A stretch of 64,000 bases of DNA. It comes from Nitrososphaerota archaeon (lineage in GTDB: Archaea; Thermoproteota; Nitrososphaeria_A; Caldarchaeales; JAVZCJ01). The DNA is taken from the NCBI GenBank assembly GCA_038817485.1, contig JAWAZL010000002.1:2918-66917 (forward strand). The letters run 5' to 3'. The notes under the pieces were generated by a model. That model was not told where the DNA came from. It made no database searches and worked only from the letters and a program-made list of their open reading frames with translations. The number at the start of each line of letters is the position of its first letter. Positions within the stretch are counted from its first letter, which is position 1. The position numbers and the translations under genes are program-made. Shown here one piece after another: positions 11,269 to 58,462 of the stretch.

Positions 11269-12493
11269 CTCCAGGTTTAATTGGACTAATTGAACGTATC
11301 CTAGATATTATTCCAGGCATTTTTTCAATCACATATTCTATATCTTCTTCATTATGAAATGGAGTAACTTTCATTAATAAACTTCCATGAGCTTCTTCAT
11401 ATTTCCTTCCTATAGCTAAAAGTACATGACTAGGTTCTAAAACTCTACTTGTACAAGCACTTCCACTTGAAACATATATTCCATTCAAACTAAGTTCAAC
11501 AGTTAATGCTTCTCCTTCGCAATATAAAAAGCTTAAATTAGCATTATCAGGTGAACGCTTATTTCCTTCAGGTCCATTTAAAAGTACATATTCTATTTCT
11601 TCAATTATATTTTTTATAAGCATATCTCTAAGATTAATCATTTTTAAAGTATAATATTCAAAATTAGAATTTAAAATTTCAATTGCTTTAGAAAAACCAA
11701 TTATAGAAGGGATATTCTCTAAACTTGGCCAAAGCCTTTGAGTACTGAGTTGTCCATAAATTATAGGTTCTAATTTTATTCCTTCTTTTACATAAAGTGC
11801 TCCTGCACCTTTTGGTCCATAAACTTTATGACTACTAAAAGAGGCTAAATCTATATTCAATTTTCTTAAATCCATTTTAATTTTTCCAAGAGCATCACAA
11901 GCATCTGTATGAACAAATATTTCTGAATCCTTATCTTTAATTACATCAACTATTGTTTTTAAATCTTGTATCGTTCCTATTTCATGATTTACAGCTGCTA
12001 TACTTACCAAAAGAGTATTTTTATCAATATTTTCATTTATAAAATCTATATTTACAAACCCTTCTTTATCAACGGGAATTTTAATAACTTTATATCCATA
12101 TTTTTGAAGATAATCAGCTGGAAAAATTACGCTTAAATGCTCTATACTTGATACAAGTATTTTTTTTCTTTCTTTATAAGATTCGGCTAATCCCAAAATA
12201 GCTAAATTATTAGCTTCAGTACCATTATGAGTATATACTATTTCTTCAAGATTACAATTTAAAACATTAGCTAATATACTACTTGATTCGTAAAGTTTCT
12301 CATAGGATTCCCATCCAATTTTATGAGTTATAGACGGATGACCATAGCCAGTATTTTTATAAGCTTCAATTAGTGCTTCCAAAGCTTCAGGAAATATTAA
12401 TCCAGAATTTTCTGAATCGAGGTATACTTCCTTTTTAGGTTTACCGTGAAATTCTAAAAGGGAACGTACATCTTTAATTATATCACTAGACAT
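11252..12493 (-). CDS. iscS: Cysteine desulfurase (class V aminotransferase, IscS/NifS/SufS-like)
   Basis: 413 aa. The PLP-lysine motif is SFSSHKVYGPKGAGALYV. The active-site Cys is in the SSGSACTS loop. Confidence 0.8.
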   Translation of the reverse strand: MSSDIIKDVRSLLEFHGKPKKEVYLDSENSGLIFPEALEALIEAYKNTGYGHPSITHKIGWESYEKLYESSSILANVLNCNLEEIVYTHNGTEANNLAILGLAESYKERKKILVSSIEHLSVIFPADYLQKYGYKVIKIPVDKEGFVNIDFINENIDKNTLLVSIAAVNHEIGTIQDLKTIVDVIKDKDSEIFVHTDACDALGKIKMDLRKLNIDLASFSSHKVYGPKGAGALYVKEGIKLEPIIYGQLSTQRLWPSLENIPSIIGFSKAIEILNSNFEYYTLKMINLRDMLIKNIIEEIEYVLLNGPEGNKRSPDNANLSFLYCEGEALTVELSLNGIYVSSGSACTSRVLEPSHVLLAIGRKYEEAHGSLLMKVTPFHNEEDIEYVIEKMPGIISRIRSISPIKPGGEKNV

Positions 12494-12495
12494 TA

Positions 12496-12723
12496 CTATT
12501 TAACCTCCACGTATATTTCATATACATCTTCATTCTTCTCAATTTTTAAAATATTATGTCCTACATTGGAAGCCCACTCTTTTATATCAGAGGGAGCAGC
12601 TGGATCTGTAGCTAAAAGTTTAATTATTTGCCCTGGTTTTGCTTTGCTAATCGCTTCAACTAATGCTAATAAAGGTCCTGGACAAAACTTAAATCTTGCA
12701 TCAATTACTAAATCTACTTTCAT
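12496..12723 (-). CDS. tusA: TusA-like sulfurtransferase
   Basis: 75 aa with the CPGP motif near the N-terminus (FKFCPGPLLAL). Confidence 0.7.
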   Translation of the reverse strand: MKVDLVIDARFKFCPGPLLALVEAISKAKPGQIIKLLATDPAAPSDIKEWASNVGHNILKIEKNEDVYEIYVEVK

Positions 12724-12739
12724 AATTAATCTACTTTAT

Positions 12740-13150
12740 TTAAGAAATAAATAAGTTTATTTCAGAATCTTTAGCTTTAGATAAGAAAGTTGGAGCACCA
12801 ACTATATCATCTACAAAATCTTCAAGATTTTCTTTATTAATTCCAAATAAATCCATTGTTGTTGAGCAAGCATAGATTTTAAGTTTACCAATATTTTTAA
12901 AAGATTTAATCATATTTTTCCATTCTGGAATTTTACCTGATTCTATCATTTTTATTAAAGATTCCTTATATTCATTATAGTCTAAGCTTACATTTTTAGT
13001 TTCATATCCTTTCTTTAAAGCTAATAAAGCCCAAAAAGTGAAAAATATTTCAGCATCCCATCCTAAAGCAACAGAACTAGTTGCAAGTATTATTGCTGGA
13101 TAAATTTTATCTATTCTTTCGGAAGCTAATATGATAGATATTTTAGGCAT
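12740..13150 (-). CDS. DsrE/DsrF/TusD-like sulfur-relay protein
   Basis: 136 aa with a conserved Cys in IYACSTTMDLFG. It lies immediately downstream of tusA, as in archaeal dsrE3-tusA clusters. Confidence 0.55.
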   Translation of the reverse strand: MPKISIILASERIDKIYPAIILATSSVALGWDAEIFFTFWALLALKKGYETKNVSLDYNEYKESLIKMIESGKIPEWKNMIKSFKNIGKLKIYACSTTMDLFGINKENLEDFVDDIVGAPTFLSKAKDSEINLFIS

Positions 13151-13281
13151 ATTTTCTCAATAAAATAAATATAACGGTGTTATATAAAGTTTTAAAAATA
13201 ATGATGAATATTTTAAAAATATTTTTTATTTTCTTAAAAAAACTTTTATATAAAAATAATTAATTAAGTTCAAATATAAAA

Positions 13282-13617
13282 TTGGTGATGAAAATGAAAA
13301 TAAAAGATGAAAAACTCACTGGATATATTTTACTTGCTATAGGTTTGATACTTATATTTTTTTCGATATTCTCTGTTTTTAGTGTTTTTACTGGTTCTTC
13401 TTCTGCTCCATCATTAATTAAAATGAATGATGTTAAAATTTCTATTCCTGGTGCTGGAGAAACTACAATTTTTGATGGGGAGACTTTAAGTAGTATTACC
13501 AATATATTTCTATGGCTCATTTTAATGATTTTTATTGCTTCAGGAGGAAGTAGAATAGGAAACTTAGGAGTAAAATTATTAAGAGAAATAAAAGTAGAGA
13601 TAAAAAAAGAAGATTAA
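13282..13617 (+). CDS. Small membrane protein (two predicted TM helices)
   Basis: 111 aa with hydrophobic stretches LLAIGLILIFFSIFSVFSVF and IFLWLILMIFIA. It overlaps the antisense ORF 13260..13520, which I consider spurious. Confidence 0.4.
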   Translation: MVMKMKIKDEKLTGYILLAIGLILIFFSIFSVFSVFTGSSSAPSLIKMNDVKISIPGAGETTIFDGETLSSITNIFLWLILMIFIASGGSRIGNLGVKLLREIKVEIKKED

Positions 13618-32905: not shown

Positions 32906-33992
32906 TTAAATGTTTATCAAATTTATATCCACATTGCATTCAAACATTCTCCCATTTATTTTTCCATAGCTTTCGCATTTGCTACATATATTTGAAGTAT
33001 TCTTTGCTTTTACTAATGTTTGTTTTAGATTTCTTTGATTTTTACTAAAAGTCGGTATATATGTTAATACTTTCATAGAATAATTCCACAGACTCTTTTC
33101 AAATGTTCTTTTTATTATTTTTCTAAGCCATTCTGCACTCTTTTTATTTGTTTTCTTGCTATCGTTTCCAGCTTCATAGTCTTTAAGATTTTCAAATGAA
33201 ATTATTGCAATTTCACAATTATATTGTTTTATACTCTCTAATGCAATATCAATAAGCTTTTTAGAAGTCTTCTCTATCCAATCTTTATTTTGTCTTTGTA
33301 TTCTTTTGTTTATTCTTTGGAATAATTCATTGTATTTTACTGAAACTCCATGATTTTCTTGTAATCTCCATTTTACAATTTCTTGGAATTGATGGCTTTT
33401 AATTTTTGGTTTAATAAAAGCAAATTTCATTGGTTTTATTGAATTATCTTTAGTATTCCATATCCATAAAGAATAAGCTACGCCATGTTTTGAATTTAAA
33501 TCAACACCTATTACTGCAATTCTTTGTAGTTCCTTAAATTCTTCTTTAGTTAATAGTTTAATGTTTTTCTTTAAAATTACATGCAATTCCCAAATGTCCT
33601 TTTTTGATTATTTCTCTTCTTTTATGATGCCCTTTCTTATAACTTGGTGGTAGAACTCTTATCATCGTAGCTTTTGCTCCATTTTCAATTTCTTTTTTAA
33701 GATAATCCATTTGTTTTCAGCAATTTTTATTGGAGTCCTTTTATATTTTCTCTAAAGATGTTAACCATATTATATTATTTTCAAAGTCTATATTGAAACC
33801 AGTTTCGCAAAATGTTAAATGAGATACATTGAATTTATTGAATAGTTTCATTGAAGCTTTTAATGTTGATAGTAAATCAAATTCTATATTTCTTCTATAT
33901 CTATACTTTGCAATATTCCAAGCATTTAATATATTATAAAGATATTCATTATTATCAATAGTTTTTAATTTTACAATTTTCCTTATTTGCAT
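32906..33992 (-). pseudogene. tnpB: IS200/IS605-family TnpB (OrfB) gene, split by two frameshifts into three pieces
   Basis: N-terminal 83-aa ORF 33741..33992. A middle piece MDYLKKEIENGAKATMIRVLPPSYKKGHHKRR is in another frame. The C-terminal 226-aa ORF 32906..33586 carries RuvC-I IGVDLN, RuvC-II ISFENL, the Zn finger CSKC...C and RuvC-III NVDINLINI. Confidence 0.7.
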
Positions 33993-50868: not shown

Positions 50869-51513
50869 ATGTCTAGAGAAGCTGTTAGAGTTACTCGAAT
50901 GGAGCTTCTTAAGCTTAAGAAAAGTTTAGAAGTTGCGATTAGAGCAAGGAATTTGTTAGAAGAGAAAAGAAATGTTCTTGCAATGGAGTTACTTGATTAT
51001 ATTAAAAAAATGAATTTAGCACAAGAAAAAATTGATGAGAAAATGAAGAACGCTCATAATGCATTTATAGACGCTCAAATGGCTTTAGGTAAAATAGGTA
51101 TTAAAAGCGCAATTGTTTCAATTTCTCCTGAGCGTTTTTCACTTGAAGAAAAATATAGAAGCATTATGGGAATAAGAATACCAATAATAAATTTGATCGA
51201 AAATAAAATACAAATTCCTTATAATTTTTTATCACCCTCATCAAAACTAGATGAATTGGCTCTTCATGTTAATGAAGCAATTAAAGCAATTATAGAAGCA
51301 GCTGAAGCACAAGCTACAATTAAGAAACTTGCAGAAGAATTAAAGAAAATAAAAAGGAGAGTTAATGCTTTAGATCGTATAATTATACCTAGAATAAAAA
51401 ATAGAATCAAGTATATAGAAGAAAGACTTAGTGAAATGGAACGTGAAACGATTTTTAGAATAAAAAGAATAAAATATCTTTTAGAAAAAAGGAAAATTAC
51501 AGAAATTGTTTAA
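50869..51513 (+). CDS. atpD: A-type ATPase subunit D (central stalk)
   Basis: 214 aa. The N-terminus is VRVTRMELLKLKKSLEVAIRARNLLEEKR. Confidence 0.8.
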   Translation: MSREAVRVTRMELLKLKKSLEVAIRARNLLEEKRNVLAMELLDYIKKMNLAQEKIDEKMKNAHNAFIDAQMALGKIGIKSAIVSISPERFSLEEKYRSIMGIRIPIINLIENKIQIPYNFLSPSSKLDELALHVNEAIKAIIEAAEAQATIKKLAEELKKIKRRVNALDRIIIPRIKNRIKYIEERLSEMERETIFRIKRIKYLLEKRKITEIV

Positions 51514-51913: not shown

Positions 51914-52100
51914 AATAATTTCGTTATTAATTATATTAAAACTTATATAAATACTTTTAATAAGATTTTTCTTAATATTAATGTTTTGAATTTTACTTTG
52001 ATAAATTTACTTAATTTCCTAAAATACTTAAAATTTATAAATGAAAATATTAAAAAATAAAAATTTATAAATTAATTTTGAGAATATTTGTTAGAAAAAT

Positions 52101-52310
52101 ATGAAGGATAATAGTAAGACTATTAGTACTGATAATGTTTTAGAATATATTAAAGAAAATGAGCCTCTCTGTTTAAGCGACATTTCTAAGAAATTTAATA
52201 TTAGTTGGGCTACTGCAAAAACATTGCTTCTTGAACTTGTTTTACATGGAAAAATAAATATGAAAAAATGCGGTAAAACATGGATTGTATGGATGAAAGA
52301 ATCAAAATAG
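52101..52310 (+). CDS. Small winged-helix DNA-binding protein (copy 1 of a paralogous pair)
   Basis: 69 aa. The 3' 111 nt (52191..52301) are 100 % identical to the reverse complement of 58078..58188. Confidence 0.6.
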   Translation: MKDNSKTISTDNVLEYIKENEPLCLSDISKKFNISWATAKTLLLELVLHGKINMKKCGKTWIVWMKESK

Positions 52311-52398
52311 TATTGAATAACTATAAAGTATTAAAAGGAAAAACTATTTTTATTACATAATTGATTTAAAAGAAACTAAAGAAAAGGTGAGTAAATAA

Positions 52399-52782
52399 TT
52401 GTTGGTAAAAGAAGTAATGAAGAAAAATGTAATTACAATAGATGCTGAAAAAACTATTGAAGAAGCTTGTAAAATAATGGGTGAAAAACATATAGGAAGC
52501 TTGATTGTTACTATTAATGATGAACCTCGTGGAATATTTACAGAAAGAGATTTAGTATCAAAAGTAATTTCTAAGAATATTGATATAAAAAAAGCAAAAG
52601 TTAAAGAATATATGTCATCTCCATTAATTTTTGTAAAGCCCGATATTCATATTAAAGAAGCTGCTAAAATAATGGTTGAAATGCATATACGTAGACTTCC
52701 TGTAATTGAAAATGATAAATTAGTTGGAATTTTTACCTCCTCAGATTTTGTTGAAGCAATTTGTAAATATCCATTTGAATAA
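52399..52782 (+). CDS. Tandem CBS-domain protein
   Basis: 127 aa. Two CBS motifs: ...GSLIVTINDEPRGIFTERDL... and ...RRLPVIENDKLVGIFTSSDF. Confidence 0.7.
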   Translation: MLVKEVMKKNVITIDAEKTIEEACKIMGEKHIGSLIVTINDEPRGIFTERDLVSKVISKNIDIKKAKVKEYMSSPLIFVKPDIHIKEAAKIMVEMHIRRLPVIENDKLVGIFTSSDFVEAICKYPFE

Positions 52783-52798
52783 AAAAAGTGTTAATAAA

Positions 52799-53029
52799 AT
52801 GCGTACAGAAAAAACAAATAAAGAGAATAAGGAATTAGTATGTACAGATTGTGGAAAAGAACTTAGCCCTGATGATTATCTTAAAAAATGGGGCTATTGT
52901 AGATATTGTAATCAACCAGTATGCTTTGATTGTGCACGTTATGTAGGGGTACGTGTAAGAGGTCTTTATCATGACTATATTGAAGCTGTTAGAGTATGCA
53001 GAAAATGTTATCCAAAAAAACCTAGATGA
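52799..53029 (+). CDS. Zn-ribbon protein with four CxxC pairs
   Basis: 76 aa from the internal Met (MRTEKTNK...). CTDCG...CRYCNQPVCFDCARY...CRKC. The called 52724 start overlaps the CBS gene. Confidence 0.5.
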   Translation: MRTEKTNKENKELVCTDCGKELSPDDYLKKWGYCRYCNQPVCFDCARYVGVRVRGLYHDYIEAVRVCRKCYPKKPR

Positions 53030-53145
53030 AGCAAATACTTCATTTAAAATTGTTTTATTCTTTTAAAGCTTTTTATTCATATAAAACTTAATAAATTAGA
53101 AAAAAATAGAACTTTTAAAAATATAGAATAAACAGGTTTATAAAA

Positions 53146-54930
53146 ATGTTAGCTAAAGGTATAATATCAAGAGTTTCTGGTCCAGTAGTTATTGCAAAAA
53201 ATATGTCTAAAGCTCAAATGTATGAACTTGTAAAAGTTGGTGAACTTGAGCTTATAGGAGAAATTATTAGACTTGAGGGAGACAAAGCTACTATACAAGT
53301 ATATGAAGAAACAAGCGGTATAAAACCTGGAGAAAAAGTGGAAGGAACCGGCAAGCCATTATCTGTTGAATTAGGACCTGGATTAATAGGTCAAATATAT
53401 GATGGTGTACAAAGACCATTACCAAGTGTAGCTTCATTGGTGGGGCCATTCATAAAAAGAGGAGTATATGCTCCAGCTTTAAATAGGGATAGAAAATGGC
53501 ATTTTAAACCTCTTATAAAGAAAGGAGAGAAAATTATTGGTGGTGATATTTTAGGAATAGTTCAAGAAACCCCTTTAGTAACACATAAAGTTTTACTTCA
53601 TCCAGAGAAAAATGGTAAAGTAGTTGAAGTTGTACCCGAAGGAGATTATACAGTATTAGATACTATAGCAGTAATCGAAACATTTTCTGGAAAAGAAGAA
53701 ATTAAAATGTTTCATACATGGCCTGTTAGAAAACCTAGACCATTTAAAGAAAGAATGCCAAGTGATGTCCCTCTTATTACTGGACAGAGAATAATAGATA
53801 CGTTTTTCCCTATATGTAAAGGGGGAACTGCAGCTATACCAGGTGGTTTTGGAACTGGAAAAACAGTTATGCAACACCAATTAGCCCAATGGGCAGATGC
53901 TGATATAGTATTATTTATTGGGTGTGGAGAAAGAGGAAATGAAATGGCTGAGGTACTTGAAAGATTTCCAAGTTTAAAAGATCCTAGAAGTGGACAACCA
54001 TTAATGAATAGAACAATACTTGTTGCGAATGTTTCAAATATGCCAATTGCTGCTAGAGAAGCATCTGTATATACTGGAATAACGATGGCTGAATATTATA
54101 GAGATATGGGATATGATATAGCAATGCAAGCAGACTCAACAAGTAGATGGGCTGAAGCATTAAGAGAGGTATCTGGAAGATTAGAAGAAATGCCTGGAGA
54201 AGAAGGTTATCCAGCTTATTTAGCATCTAGGATAGCTGAATTTTATGAAAGAGCTGGAAGAGTAGTTTGTTTAGGAAGTGATTATAGAGTAGGGTCCATT
54301 AGTATAGTTGGAGCAGTTTCTCCTCCAGGAGGAGATTTTTCAGAACCTGTTACACAATGTACATTAAGAATGGTTAAAGTATTTTGGGCTTTAGATACAG
54401 AATTAGCATATAGAAGACATTTTCCAGCAATACATTGGTTAACAAGCTATTCATTATACACTACTTCACTTCAAAAATGGTTTGAAGAAAAAATATCAAA
54501 GGAATGGAATGAATTAAGAGAAAAAGCAATGTATATATTGCAACAAGATGCTGAACTTGAAGAAATAGTTAGATTAGTTGGTCCAGACGCTTTATCTGAT
54601 CCACAAAGAGCAATATTGGAAGCAGCTAAAATGATTAAAGAAGATTATTTAATGCAACATGCATATCATCCAATAGATACTTATTGTCCATTAAATAAAA
54701 GTTATCAAATGTTAAAAACAATAATATACTTTTATGAGAAAATTTCAAATGCTGTTGAAAAAGGAGTCCCTCTTCAAAAAATTTTAGGATTACCCATTAG
54801 AGAAGAAATTGCAAGAATGAAAATACAACCATATGATAAAATAGAAGAAATAGCAAAAAATATTAGACAAAAAATCGATGAAGAAATAAATAATTTACTA
54901 AAAATAAGTATAGAAGCTGAAACTAAATAA
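53146..54930 (+). CDS. atpA: A-type ATPase catalytic subunit A
   Basis: 594 aa. P-loop [10 protein letters not shown], with the A-subunit-specific non-homologous insert. Confidence 0.9.
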
Positions 54931-54940
54931 CTTTATTTTT

Positions 54941-55573
54941 ATGAAGCATAAAATTATAAAAATAAGAAATACTATAGATAACGATACTATAGAGAAAGTT
55001 AAAAATGTATTAGAAAATGATGGTCTTGTAATTTATCCAACGGATACTTTATATGCTTTAGGTGCAAATGCTTTAAGTAAAGAAGCTATAAAGAAAGTTT
55101 TTGAAATTAAAGGTAGAGATTATAATAAACCAATATCAATAGCTTTGAAAAATTTAGAAGAAGCAAAAAAATATTTTATATTTAATGAAATTGCTGAAAA
55201 AATTGCAAAAAAGTTTCTACCAGGACCTTTAACAATAATTCTACCATCTTATGCTTTACCTAAAGAACTTTCACCTACACAAAAATTTAGTTTTAGAATA
55301 CCTGATAATGAGATCGCTTTAAAAATTTTGAATAGCATAAACTTTCCACTTACTGCAACTTCAGCTAATATTTCAGGAGGTGAAAATCCCATTAATGCTG
55401 AAATTTCAATAAAACAAATTGGAAAATATGTAGACTTGATTTTAGATTGTGGAAAATGTAAATATAGCAAACCTTCAACAGTTATAGATTTGAGTAATGG
55501 TAAAATAGCTCTTGTAAGAGAAGGCGTTATTTCTGTAGAATGCCTTTATTCAGCTTTAAGAACTAATTGTTAA
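54941..55573 (+). CDS. YrdC/Sua5-family threonylcarbamoyl-AMP synthase domain protein (tRNA t6A)
   Basis: 210 aa. YPTDTLYALGANALSKEAIKKVFEIKGRDYNKPISIAL. It lies between atpA and atpB. Confidence 0.65.
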   Translation: MKHKIIKIRNTIDNDTIEKVKNVLENDGLVIYPTDTLYALGANALSKEAIKKVFEIKGRDYNKPISIALKNLEEAKKYFIFNEIAEKIAKKFLPGPLTIILPSYALPKELSPTQKFSFRIPDNEIALKILNSINFPLTATSANISGGENPINAEISIKQIGKYVDLILDCGKCKYSKPSTVIDLSNGKIALVREGVISVECLYSALRTNC

Positions 55574-55665
55574 AAATTGAAAATAAAAAATTTGAAAAAT
55601 AAAATTTTTATGGAAAGATATTTATAAAACAAAATAAGAACAAAATATAGAAAGAGTGAATTAAA

Positions 55666-57090
55666 ATGGTGCTAAAACCAGAAAGAAAGTATCAAACATT
55701 AACAACGATATCTGGTCCATTATTATTTATAGAAGCAACAAAAGATGTGGCTTTTGGAGAACTTGTAGAAATAGAATTACCAAATGGAGAAATAAGGAGA
55801 GGGCAAGTATTAGAAGTAAGTGAAAATAGAGCAATAATACAAGTATTTGAAGGAACAAGCGGACTTGATATAGATAAAACAATAGTGAGATTTACTGGAG
55901 AAACTATAAAAATACCAGTAGCACAAGAAATGATTGGAAGAATATTTGACGGATCTGCAAGACCAATAGATGGAGGCCCACCAATAGTACCAGAAGATGA
56001 AATAGACATACATGGGTCTCCATTAAATCCATATACAAGGGAATATCCAAAAGAACCAATACAAACAGGAATATCAGCAATAGATGGAATGAATACGCTT
56101 GTAAGAGGACAAAAATTACCAATATTTACTGGAACAGGATTGCCACATAATCAATTAGTAGCACAAATAATAAGACAAGCAAAAGTACCTGGTAAAGAAG
56201 AGGAATTTTTAGTAATATTTGCAGCATTAGGAATAACAGCAGATGAAGCAAGATTCTTTAAAGAAGAAACTGAAAAAAGGGGAGCATTGGCAAAAACAAT
56301 AATGATTTTAAATCTTGCAGATGACCCTGCTATTGAAAGAATAATAACGCCAAGAATAGCATTAACAATAGCAGAATATTTAGCATATACTTATGATATG
56401 CACATACTAGTAATATTAAGTGATATGACAAACTATTGTGAAGCATTAAGAGAGATATCAGCAGCAAGAGAAGAAGTGCCTGGAAGAAGAGGATACCCAG
56501 GATACATGTATACAGATTTAGCAACAATATATGAAAGAGCAGGCAGAATACATGGAAGAAAAGGAACGATTACACAAATGCCAGTTGTAACAATGCCTCA
56601 TGATGATATTACACATCCAATTCCCGATCTTACTGGTTATATAACGGAAGGGCAAATATTTTTAGACCGTGGTTTACATCGTAAAGGTATATACCCACCT
56701 ATTGATGTTTTTCCTTCTTTAAGTCGTTTAATGAAGGAAGGTATAGGTAAGGGTTTAACTCGTGAAGATCATCGTGAAGTTAGTGATTGTTTATATTATG
56801 CTTATGCTGAAGGAAGACGTGTGCGTGAATTGATAGCTGTAATAGGAGAAGAAGCTTTAAGTGAAATTGATCGTCTATATTTACGTTTTGCTGATGAATT
56901 TGAACGTCGTTTCATAAATCAAGGTTATTATGAAGATCGTAGTTTTGAAAAAACTTTAGATTTAGGTTGGGAATTACTTAGTATGCTTCCTGAGAGTGAA
57001 TTAAAACGTGCCGATCCTGCTACTATTCGTAAATATTTGCCTAAATATCGTAAAAAAGAAGCTATTACTGAGCCTAGTTTAACCGCTTAA
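55666..57090 (+). CDS. atpB: A-type ATPase subunit B
   Basis: 474 aa regulatory-subunit homologue. Confidence 0.9.
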
Positions 57091-57981
57091 TTTTCTATAT
57101 TTAGGAAATATCACTTTAGAGAATTTTTTTAAAACAGTTATAGCCTTATCTGGAGAAACGTTTGTTTGTGAAAAATCAATTATAATAGCGCTTGCATTTA
57201 ATTTAATATATGAATCTATATTTGATATCCATTCTGATGTTTTTTCGCCTACTCCATCTGGATAAGAAAGTGATGGAACTAAAAGAATTTTTCTTCTTCT
57301 TTTATAGCATTTCATTATTTTAATAATCTCATTAGTCATTTCTTTAAATTTTTCCAATGGTGTATCTGTTAAAAAGAGAAAACCACTTCCATATTTTACA
57401 GCAGCTTCAAGTATAATTTTTGAGGATCCGCCAAACCAAATTGGTGGATGGGGTTTTTGTATAGGTTTTGGCCAAAAAGGTGCATTATAAACTTTATAAT
57501 ATTTTCCATCATAAGTTACTTTATCTTCTTTCCAAAGTTTTAATATTATTTCTAATCCCTCTAACATTTTTGAAATTCTTTCTTTATGAGCTTCCCAATT
57601 AAAACCATAAGAAATAGCCTCATCTTTAAACCACCCTGCTCCTACGCCAAAATTAACTCGACCATTAGAAATTATATCCGCTGTTGTTATAATCTTTGCA
57701 AGTTTAGCTGGCATATAAAATGGTATTGGAGAAACGCGAGTTCCTACTCTAATTTTTTTCGTTTGTACCGCTATAGCAGTTAACAAAGTCCAAGCGTCAA
57801 GTTTATTTGGTTTTTTAGGATTTCCTCCTGTTTTTATGTATATTTTTTCTGGAAGATAAAAATGGTCGCCAACCCATAAAGAATTATAGCCTAATTTATC
57901 CGCAATGATAGAAATTTTTACAATATCAGAATAACTATATTTACTATGGGTTGGTAAATGGATGCCAAAACTTAGAAACAA
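57079..57981 (-). CDS. Luciferase-like (LLM) flavin/F420-dependent oxidoreductase
   Basis: 300 aa with GVGAGW. The N-terminus [11 protein letters not shown] matches the LLM start. Confidence 0.65.
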
Positions 57982-58056
57982 AATATATTCCCCTCTATAT
58001 TTTCATTAATATAATGATTTAATATTTTTGTTTAATAGTTTTTTCATTTAAGATAT

Positions 58057-58278
58057 TTATCCTTTTACTTTAGAACCTTCTTTCATCCATACAATCCATG
58101 TTTTACCGCATTTTTTCATATTTATTTTTCCATGTAAAACAAGTTCAAGAAGCAATGTTTTTGCAGTAGCCCAACTAATATTAAATTTTTCAGAAATGCC
58201 ACTTACACACACAGGTTCATTTTCTTCAATAAATTTTAAAACTTCATTAATATTAACAGATTTCTCATCACTCTTCAT
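58057..58278 (-). CDS. Small winged-helix DNA-binding protein (copy 2)
   Basis: 73 aa. The C-terminal 36 residues are identical to copy 1. The N-terminal part is about 60 % identical. Confidence 0.6.
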   Translation of the reverse strand: MKSDEKSVNINEVLKFIEENEPVCVSGISEKFNISWATAKTLLLELVLHGKINMKKCGKTWIVWMKEGSKVKG

Positions 58279-58462
58279 ATTATTCTTCTAATAAATATTT
58301 CTCATCGTATTTATAAATTTTTCTAATTATTCTAACTATATTTCTATAGATATTTACAATTATGAAAATAATCTCATAAAGCTTAATGTAAAAAATAAAG
58401 TTAGTGTAGTTATCGAGAAAAATATTTAAAGAAGTATTTGTTAATGTATTAACAGAAATATT

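Follow-up and report, generated by a model that had tools for sequence, protein, structure and literature searches.

A perfect 111-nt inverted repeat in two paralogous genes around archaeal ATPase genes: probable recurrent gene conversion without fixed inversion

Introduction

Inverted repeats located inside paralogous coding sequences are known from phase-variable type I restriction-modification hsdS loci and from shufflons, where recombination between them swaps gene halves; in these systems a dedicated recombinase is present, both orientations are readily seen, and new protein specificities are produced. Partial-gene, lineage-specific conversion tracts were reportedly described by Archibald and Roger for the paralogous subunits of the archaeal chaperonin (thermosome). 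The closest known case to the locus considered here is the tufA/tufB pair of Salmonella enterica, inverted duplicates that evolve in concert by gene conversion, rare inversions being mechanistically tied to this process (Paulsson et al., 2017, PMC5485169); conversion between these two genes is also the subject of an earlier work, as far as it is cited in PMC6735719 (Hughes, 2000, J Mol Biol 297:355). Our subject is a 64-kb stretch of contig JAWAZL010000002.1 from a Nitrososphaerota archaeon (assembly GCA_038817485.1), hereafter the window, by which we mean the whole stretch of DNA that was analyzed. In it two small paralogous genes, designated p1 and p2, carry the arms of a 111-nt perfect inverted repeat and bracket the genes atpA and atpB of the A-type ATPase.

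Like tufA and tufB, p1 and p2 are inverted paralogs on one chromosome which appear to have been homogenized non-reciprocally and with variable ends, and a crossover between them would turn around the DNA that they enclose. Below we argue that the pair very probably descends from an old inverted duplication, promoter included, and that recurrent gene conversion of the non-crossover type would keep the 3' halves of the two genes identical.

The Inverted Repeat and Related Loci

A sequence-only reading of this DNA had reported the perfect repeat, and sequence comparison within the window confirmed it: arm A on the plus strand equals the reverse complement of arm B (Table 1) in 111 of 111 bases. 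Extended without gaps, the inverted repeat covers 209 nt with 88% identity (52093-52301 / 58078-58286); with gaps it spans 52059-52301 / 58078-58322 (86.3% over 248 columns, blastn E 2e-70) and takes in the promoter region common to p1 and p2, about 40 nt upstream of the coding sequence (CDS). The similarity of the two genes is not a matter of chance, since no second repeat longer than about 60 nt exists in the 64-kb window. The 111-nt arms are separated by 5776 nt, in agreement with the distance of about 5.8 kb given earlier, and the genes said to lie between them (those of a CBS-pair protein, a Zn-ribbon protein, atpA, a yrdC-like protein, atpB and a luciferase-like monooxygenase, LLM) are indeed there. 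As to the 5' parts of p1 and p2, which had been described as about 80% identical, their divergence was corroborated, but the figure is somewhat lower: the first 90 nt of the CDS contain 25 differences (72% nucleotide identity), and 14 of the 30 encoded residues are identical while 16 differ. Neither a third copy of p1/p2 nor a mobile donor was found further in the window, and the core of the repeat had no match in IMG/VR. The window has a G+C content of 26.8%, contains an archaeal SRP RNA and the A-type ATPase gene set, and is 100% identical to the NCBI contig JAWBXQ010000001.1 of a metagenome-assembled genome (GCA_038867775.1).

Related loci, at least 44 in number, were collected by exact-protein look-ups, which provided most of them, and by two collection scans with protein alignments, which provided at least one locus in genome contigs (L019) and at least two in metagenome contigs (L020, L021). 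The species of the window is represented by L001-L006 and L022. Both copies are present in four further lineages (L008-10; L021; L024-26; L020/L029-36), and only a single copy was found in three more lineages or contigs (L007, L018, L019). The two-copy lineages diverge at 9-18% of amino-acid-identical codons in 13 neighboring genes, and p1 and p2 occupy the same positions in all five of them. Contigs spanning both copies come from independent NCBI, JGI and ENA assemblies; 19 of them were examined (25 with near-duplicates that were not displayed), and on all 19, which belong to five lineages, the layout and orientation are as in the window. The sequence-only reading had also considered that relatives might combine this same orientation with diverged 3' ends. 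The orientation is indeed the same, but the 3' ends show no such divergence.

Evidence for Gene Conversion

In the first 90 nt of the CDS, paralogs within one genome differ at 16-25 positions and orthologs at 7-16. The 5' halves therefore group p1 with p1 and p2 with p2, which means that the duplication predates the splits of the lineages. The 3' halves show a different picture, as each lineage has a perfect run of identity between its own p1 and p2. In CDS coordinates this run covers nt 91-201 (111 nt) in the strain of the window, nt 112-206 (95 nt) in L008-10, nt 105-198 (94 nt) in L020/L029/L031, nt 97-192 (96 nt) in L021 and nt 105-210 (106 nt) in L024-26; in other words, there are five distinct runs of 94-111 nt, and the ends of the tract vary.

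The margins of these runs are informative as to direction. The p1-type tail TTAAAAAATTCTAA is carried by the p2 gene of L008, the p2-type tail GAAGGTTCTAAA is carried by the p1 genes of L024 and L007, and the tails specific to L008 and to L024 are each common to both copies. In the window itself, the state is p1-type in p2 at nt 100 (ATT) and p2-type in p1 at nt 104 (AGT). Taken together, the tract margins point to transfers both ways between p1 and p2. In L021 the p1 gene is p2-type from about nt 60 while its p2 is unchanged, and that transfer was therefore non-reciprocal. The same p1 gene (L021:2894-3109) has, besides the longest p2-type tract, a 5-nt deletion after codon 3 that causes a frameshift; it may be a decaying copy or reflect a sequencing error in a single contig.

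The most telling position is nt 126 of the CDS. It is A in all other lineages and G in both copies of L001, L003 and L005, while L002, which comes from another sample and is 99.98% identical to the window, has G in p1 and A in p2. Here one and the same mutation is very probably seen both prior to and following its transfer into the second gene, which would have taken place on a within-species time scale. The suggestion of recent gene conversion, made from the window alone, is thus strongly supported by the lineage-specific tract ends, the non-reciprocal transfers and this single-nucleotide polymorphism (SNP) seen before and after the putative conversion.

In the 5' halves, dN is well under dS in most comparisons of orthologs (dN 0.01-0.16, dS 0.07-0.65), whereas paralogs give dN of 0.22-0.34 versus dS of 0.30-0.55. 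This points to purifying selection within the ortholog groups and to an excess of amino-acid divergence between the paralogs, so selection appears to maintain both genes and also the difference between them upstream of the tract.

Several considerations weigh against the explanation by conversion. The central 82 nt are nearly invariant in every lineage, which leaves few sites as evidence, namely those at the tract margins and one SNP, and extreme conservation alone could keep the center identical. Recombination between lineages takes place at the locus, L023 being a mosaic, and could mimic some of the margin patterns. The dN/dS estimates are noisy, as the 5' halves comprise only 30 codons. Finally, conversion is deduced from sequence, neither a recombination event nor the machinery having been directly observed.

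Does the Bracketed Segment Invert?

A crossover within the core, instead of conversion without crossover, would flip the 5.8-kb CBS-atpA-yrdC-atpB-LLM cassette; both isomers would then exist in populations, and conversion would be a by-product, as in the case of the Salmonella tuf genes. We consider this explanation possible but rather doubtful. A perfect repeat of 111 nt suffices for homologous recombination. The proteins expected from a crossover were predicted and then looked up exactly in public assemblies, and three of the predicted chimeric genes were found, all of them at contig ends, 30-84 nt past the core. Two combine the p1 5' half with the p2 tail, namely P0090 on L022, which belongs to the species of the window, and P0099 on L023, from the L008 lineage; the third, P0105 on L039 from the L031 lineage, is of the reciprocal type (p2 5' half with the p1 tail).

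L022 ends 52 nt past the core, and its final 127 nt are those of the p2 path of L006, a contig of the same assembly, while the base before them differs (A versus G). This is the pattern of a k=127 de Bruijn vertex, and if k was indeed greater than the length of the 111-nt core, the chimeric k-mers are expected to derive from reads. However, the assembly mixes strains with the A and the G allele, and in such a tangle false chimeric paths can result from graph simplification; the assembly also holds, as L006, a contig with the standard RF-p2-LLM-atpB order. A long conversion tract is unlikely to be behind L022, because homology ends at the tails, and L022 would require a tract resolved 52 nt further on, in the sequence specific to p2. 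L023 is a MEGAHIT k141 contig, composed of two lineages, that ends 84 nt past the core. As proof of inversion L039 had to be rejected, as it contains only 30 nt of the p1 tail and has Nextera adapters at both ends. It is the JGI contig Ga0311297_1192820, 926 bp long, with adapter/index sequence at L039:1-76 and 833-908, and this adapter-flanked mis-join demonstrates that the core can lead assemblers to the wrong tail. The chimeric end of L039 is thus an artifact, and those of L022 and L023 are ambiguous.

On the other side of the balance, the inverted orientation was met on 0 of the 19 spanning contigs (or of 25, counting the duplicates not seen), and no recombinase, integrase or invertase occurs among the Pfam assignments of the genes in or next to the segment. 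Moreover, an inversion would hardly alter the products, for both copies have similar promoters and an identical core, and the predicted chimeras, judging from their sequences, differ from the parental proteins only in the last 2-6 C-terminal residues. In none of the sampled lineages can the inversion have become fixed, and the segment does not belong to the known kinds of phase-variation switch. Inversion by homologous recombination, as proposed by the sequence-only reading, is consequently unsupported as an evolutionary outcome; at the population level it has the two ambiguous chimeric contig ends in its favor, and real inversion isomers might occur in some populations, though we would not expect them.

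Another rearrangement was seen in L005 (GCA_038866455.1; L005:12449-15287), where genes of a YjeF_N/carbohydrate-kinase protein and BacA replace the PqqD-like/atpD flank. The junction corresponds to window position about 52037, approximately 25 nt before the TATA box of p1 and not at the core; either a strain rearrangement or a mis-join is involved. It was rejected as a candidate for repeat-mediated rearrangement, since the break lies outside the core and the segment keeps its standard relation to p2.

Conservation of the Core

The core of the repeat is almost frozen at synonymous sites, to an extent that needs an explanation of its own. When the window was compared with L008, L020, L021, L024 and L029, lineages differing at 9-18% of synonymous codons, the 29 core codons W36-W64 contained one synonymously variable column versus 8.4 expected (Poisson-binomial P about 4e-4), and among 1852 comparable sets of 29 amino-acid-invariant codons from 13 neighboring genes none had fewer than three variable columns. 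Conversion does not account for this, because exchange within a genome does not slow the divergence between genomes. It may be due to an embedded promoter or operator, to biased conversion, or to gene flow between lineages.

One specific version of such an explanation, which we hold to be rather unlikely, is that the core is a selected cis element, being either a recombination site that flips the ATPase A/B cassette or a promoter/operator read by both regulators; either of the two would explain the frozen synonymous sites, and the chimeric ends of L022 and L023 are a hint toward the recombination-site variant. An RNA element was ruled out: the structure predicted for the core is not more stable than that of shuffled sequences (z = +1.16), and no Rfam family matches in the region. 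The only overlapping open reading frame (ORF), an antisense one of 31 aa at 52210-52305, was judged to be probably spurious.

It was also considered whether conversion is needed at all, as the core could have stayed identical since the duplication through extreme nucleotide constraint on a promoter, operator or other cis element. The scarcity of synonymous changes just described speaks for such constraint, and so does an A/T-rich TATA-like stretch at 52250-52262 in the core, which would lie upstream of the CBS operon in the case of p1 and of LLM in the case of p2. However, constraint can account neither for the lineage-specific states of the margins nor for G at nt 126 in both copies versus one. 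Besides, L018, which is only slightly more distant than the lineages compared, has diverged in the core to an ordinary degree (10 of 82), and neither an RNA structure (z = +1.2) nor an Rfam match lends support. As a replacement for conversion, constraint seems to us improbable; in addition to conversion, it may well be at work.

Other Explanations

It is very improbable that atpA and atpB travel in a mobile cassette with p1 and p2 as its terminal inverted repeats: the repeats do bracket a block displaced from the canonical atpF-atpD position, and insertions (intein, LAGLIDADG, TnpB-like, DJ-1) pile up in the region, but there is no transposase or integrase within the block, whose location and flanks do not change from lineage to lineage, and the repeats are functional, selected genes with promoters of their own and without a copy in IMG/VR. 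Least probable of all is an assembly artifact (a collapsed or duplicated repeat, or a strain consensus), for although a number of contigs are interrupted at or close to the repeat (L019 stops within the core and L003 69 nt past it) and the Logan contigs L043 and L044 start 30 nt into the core, a distance of k-1 if k is 31, presumably the value used by Logan, the arms lie in different, unique contexts, the 111-nt repeat is shorter than a read, and both arms are reproduced at 100% in several independent assemblies of the same species and in four other lineages with different assemblers, a recurrence by which the collapsed repeat once considered as an objection is effectively refuted.

The p1 and p2 Proteins

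The assignment of the two small proteins by Pfam is borderline: FeoC scores 21.7 bits for p1 (cut-off 21) and 18.9 for p2, and HTH_24 scores 20.2 bits, under its cut-off of 21.9. An AlphaFold model was built from a five-sequence alignment; its mean confidence (pLDDT) is 84.6, and it contains helices at residues 10-20, 25-32 and 36-48, with a short strand after the first of them, and a hairpin of strands 52-57 and 60-65. The topology of the model (H1-b-H2-H3-wing) is that of winged helices (H1-S1-H2-H3-S2-W1-S3). In a Foldseek search of the Protein Data Bank (PDB), MarR, MexR, CadC, ArsR/SmtB and archaeal AF1382-type winged helices came out on top, with TM scores of 0.7-0.8 and E values of about 1e-3; the probability was 1.00 for MarR/ArsR/CadC. 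Model and structural matches agree with each other and with the winged helix-turn-helix fold guessed from the sequence alone. The identical 111 nt encode the recognition helix H3 and the wing, together with the end of helix 2, while the N-terminal halves (helices 1-2) are diverged; hence the parts predicted to contact DNA are identical in the two proteins and the N-terminal halves are different.

The sequence family of p1 and p2 is very narrow. A word-indexed protein search gave four 90% clusters, and in a full HMMER profile search against 1.84 billion representatives 86 matches fell below 1e-3, of which only four were below 1e-10; nearly all matches are proteins of 55-90 aa. The 90% cluster of P0106, which holds the p2-type proteins P0110, P0113 and P0118, is represented by a 128-aa HEPN-domain protein. 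This representative has no evident overall similarity to the p2-type proteins, which looks like a clustering oddity of the collection.

Gene Neighborhood and Insertions

The features of the bracketed region are listed in Table 1. Its genes form two converging runs, each with one of the paralogs in the first place: p1-CBS-Zn ribbon-atpA-yrdC-atpB and p2-LLM, the 3' end of LLM overlapping atpB by 12 nt. Upstream of both paralogs, the AAAAATTTATAAAT box and the GAGAATATTT-TTAGAA stretch are kept in every lineage. Before p1, the minus strand carries atpI, the c subunit gene, an unassigned gene and atpC, and the plus strand carries two small genes followed by atpE, atpF and atpD; a PqqD-like gene of 93 aa (minus) is located between atpD and p1. 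Beyond p2 there are a gene of 215 aa and then genes of Toprim-domain proteins.

Table 1. Features of the p1/p2 region in window coordinates.
Feature	Positions	Strand	Basis and remarks
p1 promoter region inside the extended repeat	52059..52100	+	AAAAATTTATAAAT box at 52059-52072
p1, gene of a 69-aa stand-alone winged-helix protein (predicted)	52101..52310	+	ORF, Pfam, AlphaFold, Foldseek
Arm A of the 111-nt repeat	52191..52301	+	p1 codons 31-67: helix 2 end, recognition helix H3, beta-hairpin wing
CBS-pair protein gene, in bracketed segment	52399..52782	+	PF00571, E 1.6e-32
Small Zn-ribbon (FYVE-like) protein gene, 76 aa in public annotation	52799..53029	+	
atpA, A-type ATPase catalytic subunit A	53146..54930	+	ATP-synt_ab_N, Xtn, ATP-synt_ab, VA_C
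Sua5/YciO/YrdC-family gene between atpA and atpB	54941..55573	+	PF01300, E 2.3e-52
atpB, A-type ATPase subunit B	55666..57090	+	
LLM gene, downstream of p2	57079..57981	-	PF00296, E 2.9e-46
p2, 73-aa paralog of p1	58057..58278	-	ORF, Pfam; 75% amino-acid identity to p1
Arm B of the 111-nt repeat	58078..58188	-	p2 codons 31-67
p2 promoter region, counterpart of 52059-52100	58279..58322	-	AAAAATTTATAAAT at 58322-58309

The sequence-only reading had seen in an inversion between the arms a possible cause of the way in which the ATPase genes are distributed over the strands, which it called unusual. This does not hold: atpA and atpB are co-oriented with atpE-F-D, and the segment between the arms includes none of the ATPase genes of the opposite strand (atpI, c subunit, atpC), so that an inversion between the arms cannot explain their strand; besides, the arrangement is the same in all lineages. 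What does depart from the usual archaeal order is the order of the ATPase genes (E-F-D, then A-B). The YrdC/Sua5 gene between atpA and atpB, as well as the CBS-pair and Zn-ribbon genes just upstream of atpA, is kept in every lineage.

Several insertions were observed around the locus. A free-standing LAGLIDADG endonuclease gene (288 aa) is located between atpF and atpD in L002:15091-15957 and L022:7816-8682, and also in L010, L029 and L035; its insertion site corresponds to window positions about 50895-50897, the gene being absent from the window, and it is a presence/absence polymorphism within the species. An intein with a LAGLIDADG domain interrupts atpA (site at window position about 53860) in L007, L020, L029-31, L035 and L037 (coordinates L007:3273-6062, L029:10066-13467 and L020 about 11780-13410), while the atpA genes of the window, L008, L024, L032, L033 and L036 are without it; contigs sharing identical p1/p2 pairs differ in the presence of this intein. 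In L007, a TnpB-like gene (Cas12f1-like_TNB; L007:6952-7896), 77% identical to window 32976-33992, lies between atpA and yrdC, and a DJ-1/PfpI gene lies between yrdC and atpB in L007 and L008-10. The LLM gene is split into two ORFs in L008:15521-16131, L009, L010 and L026:15146-15956, and is probably a pseudogene in those lineages.

Discussion

The history that we consider very probable, an inverted duplication followed by recurrent conversion, would proceed as follows. The two copies might exchange sequence by RadA-type strand invasion resolved without crossover. On the 3' side, the tract would be limited by the end of homology at the stop codons, and on the 5' side by selection for different N-terminal halves, longer conversions in that direction being usually selected against. 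Both proteins would read the same DNA sites, which are probably located in the shared promoter regions.

If so, the pair is a compact natural case of domain-limited concerted evolution in uncultivated archaea: with the DNA-reading half kept identical, both regulators should recognize the same sites, and the remaining half can diverge freely. Within one species, conversion appears to be caught in action by a single polymorphism, and p1/p2 can help to calibrate the shortest tract that is homogenized by archaeal recombination. The locus has a practical side as well, in that short exact repeats give rise to chimeric gene models at the contig ends of public metagenome assemblies, and L039 is an example that has entered protein databases. 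The value of the locus would rise if the inversion isomers proved real or if the frozen synonymous sites marked a functional DNA element. As it stands, it changes the understanding of no system; it is a clean but ordinary instance of gene conversion, with no solid evidence of segment flipping.

Compared with the known systems, p1 and p2 share their predicted fold with MarR-, ArsR- and FeoC-type regulators but, at 69-73 aa, lack a dimerization or sensor extension. In contrast to hsdS loci and shufflons, no recombinase was found nearby, no second orientation is confirmed, and a swap would leave the proteins essentially unchanged. The thermosome subunits belong to another protein family, and their genes are not an inverted pair bracketing an operon. 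From tufA/tufB the present pair differs in several respects: only the 3' half (about 95-111 nt) is homogenized while the 5' half is 72% identical, the products are tiny regulators and not an essential translation factor, and the copies stand 5.8 kb apart around the ATPase A/B genes, whereas the tuf genes are separated by hundreds of kilobases. The host, too, is a different one, an uncultivated archaeon.

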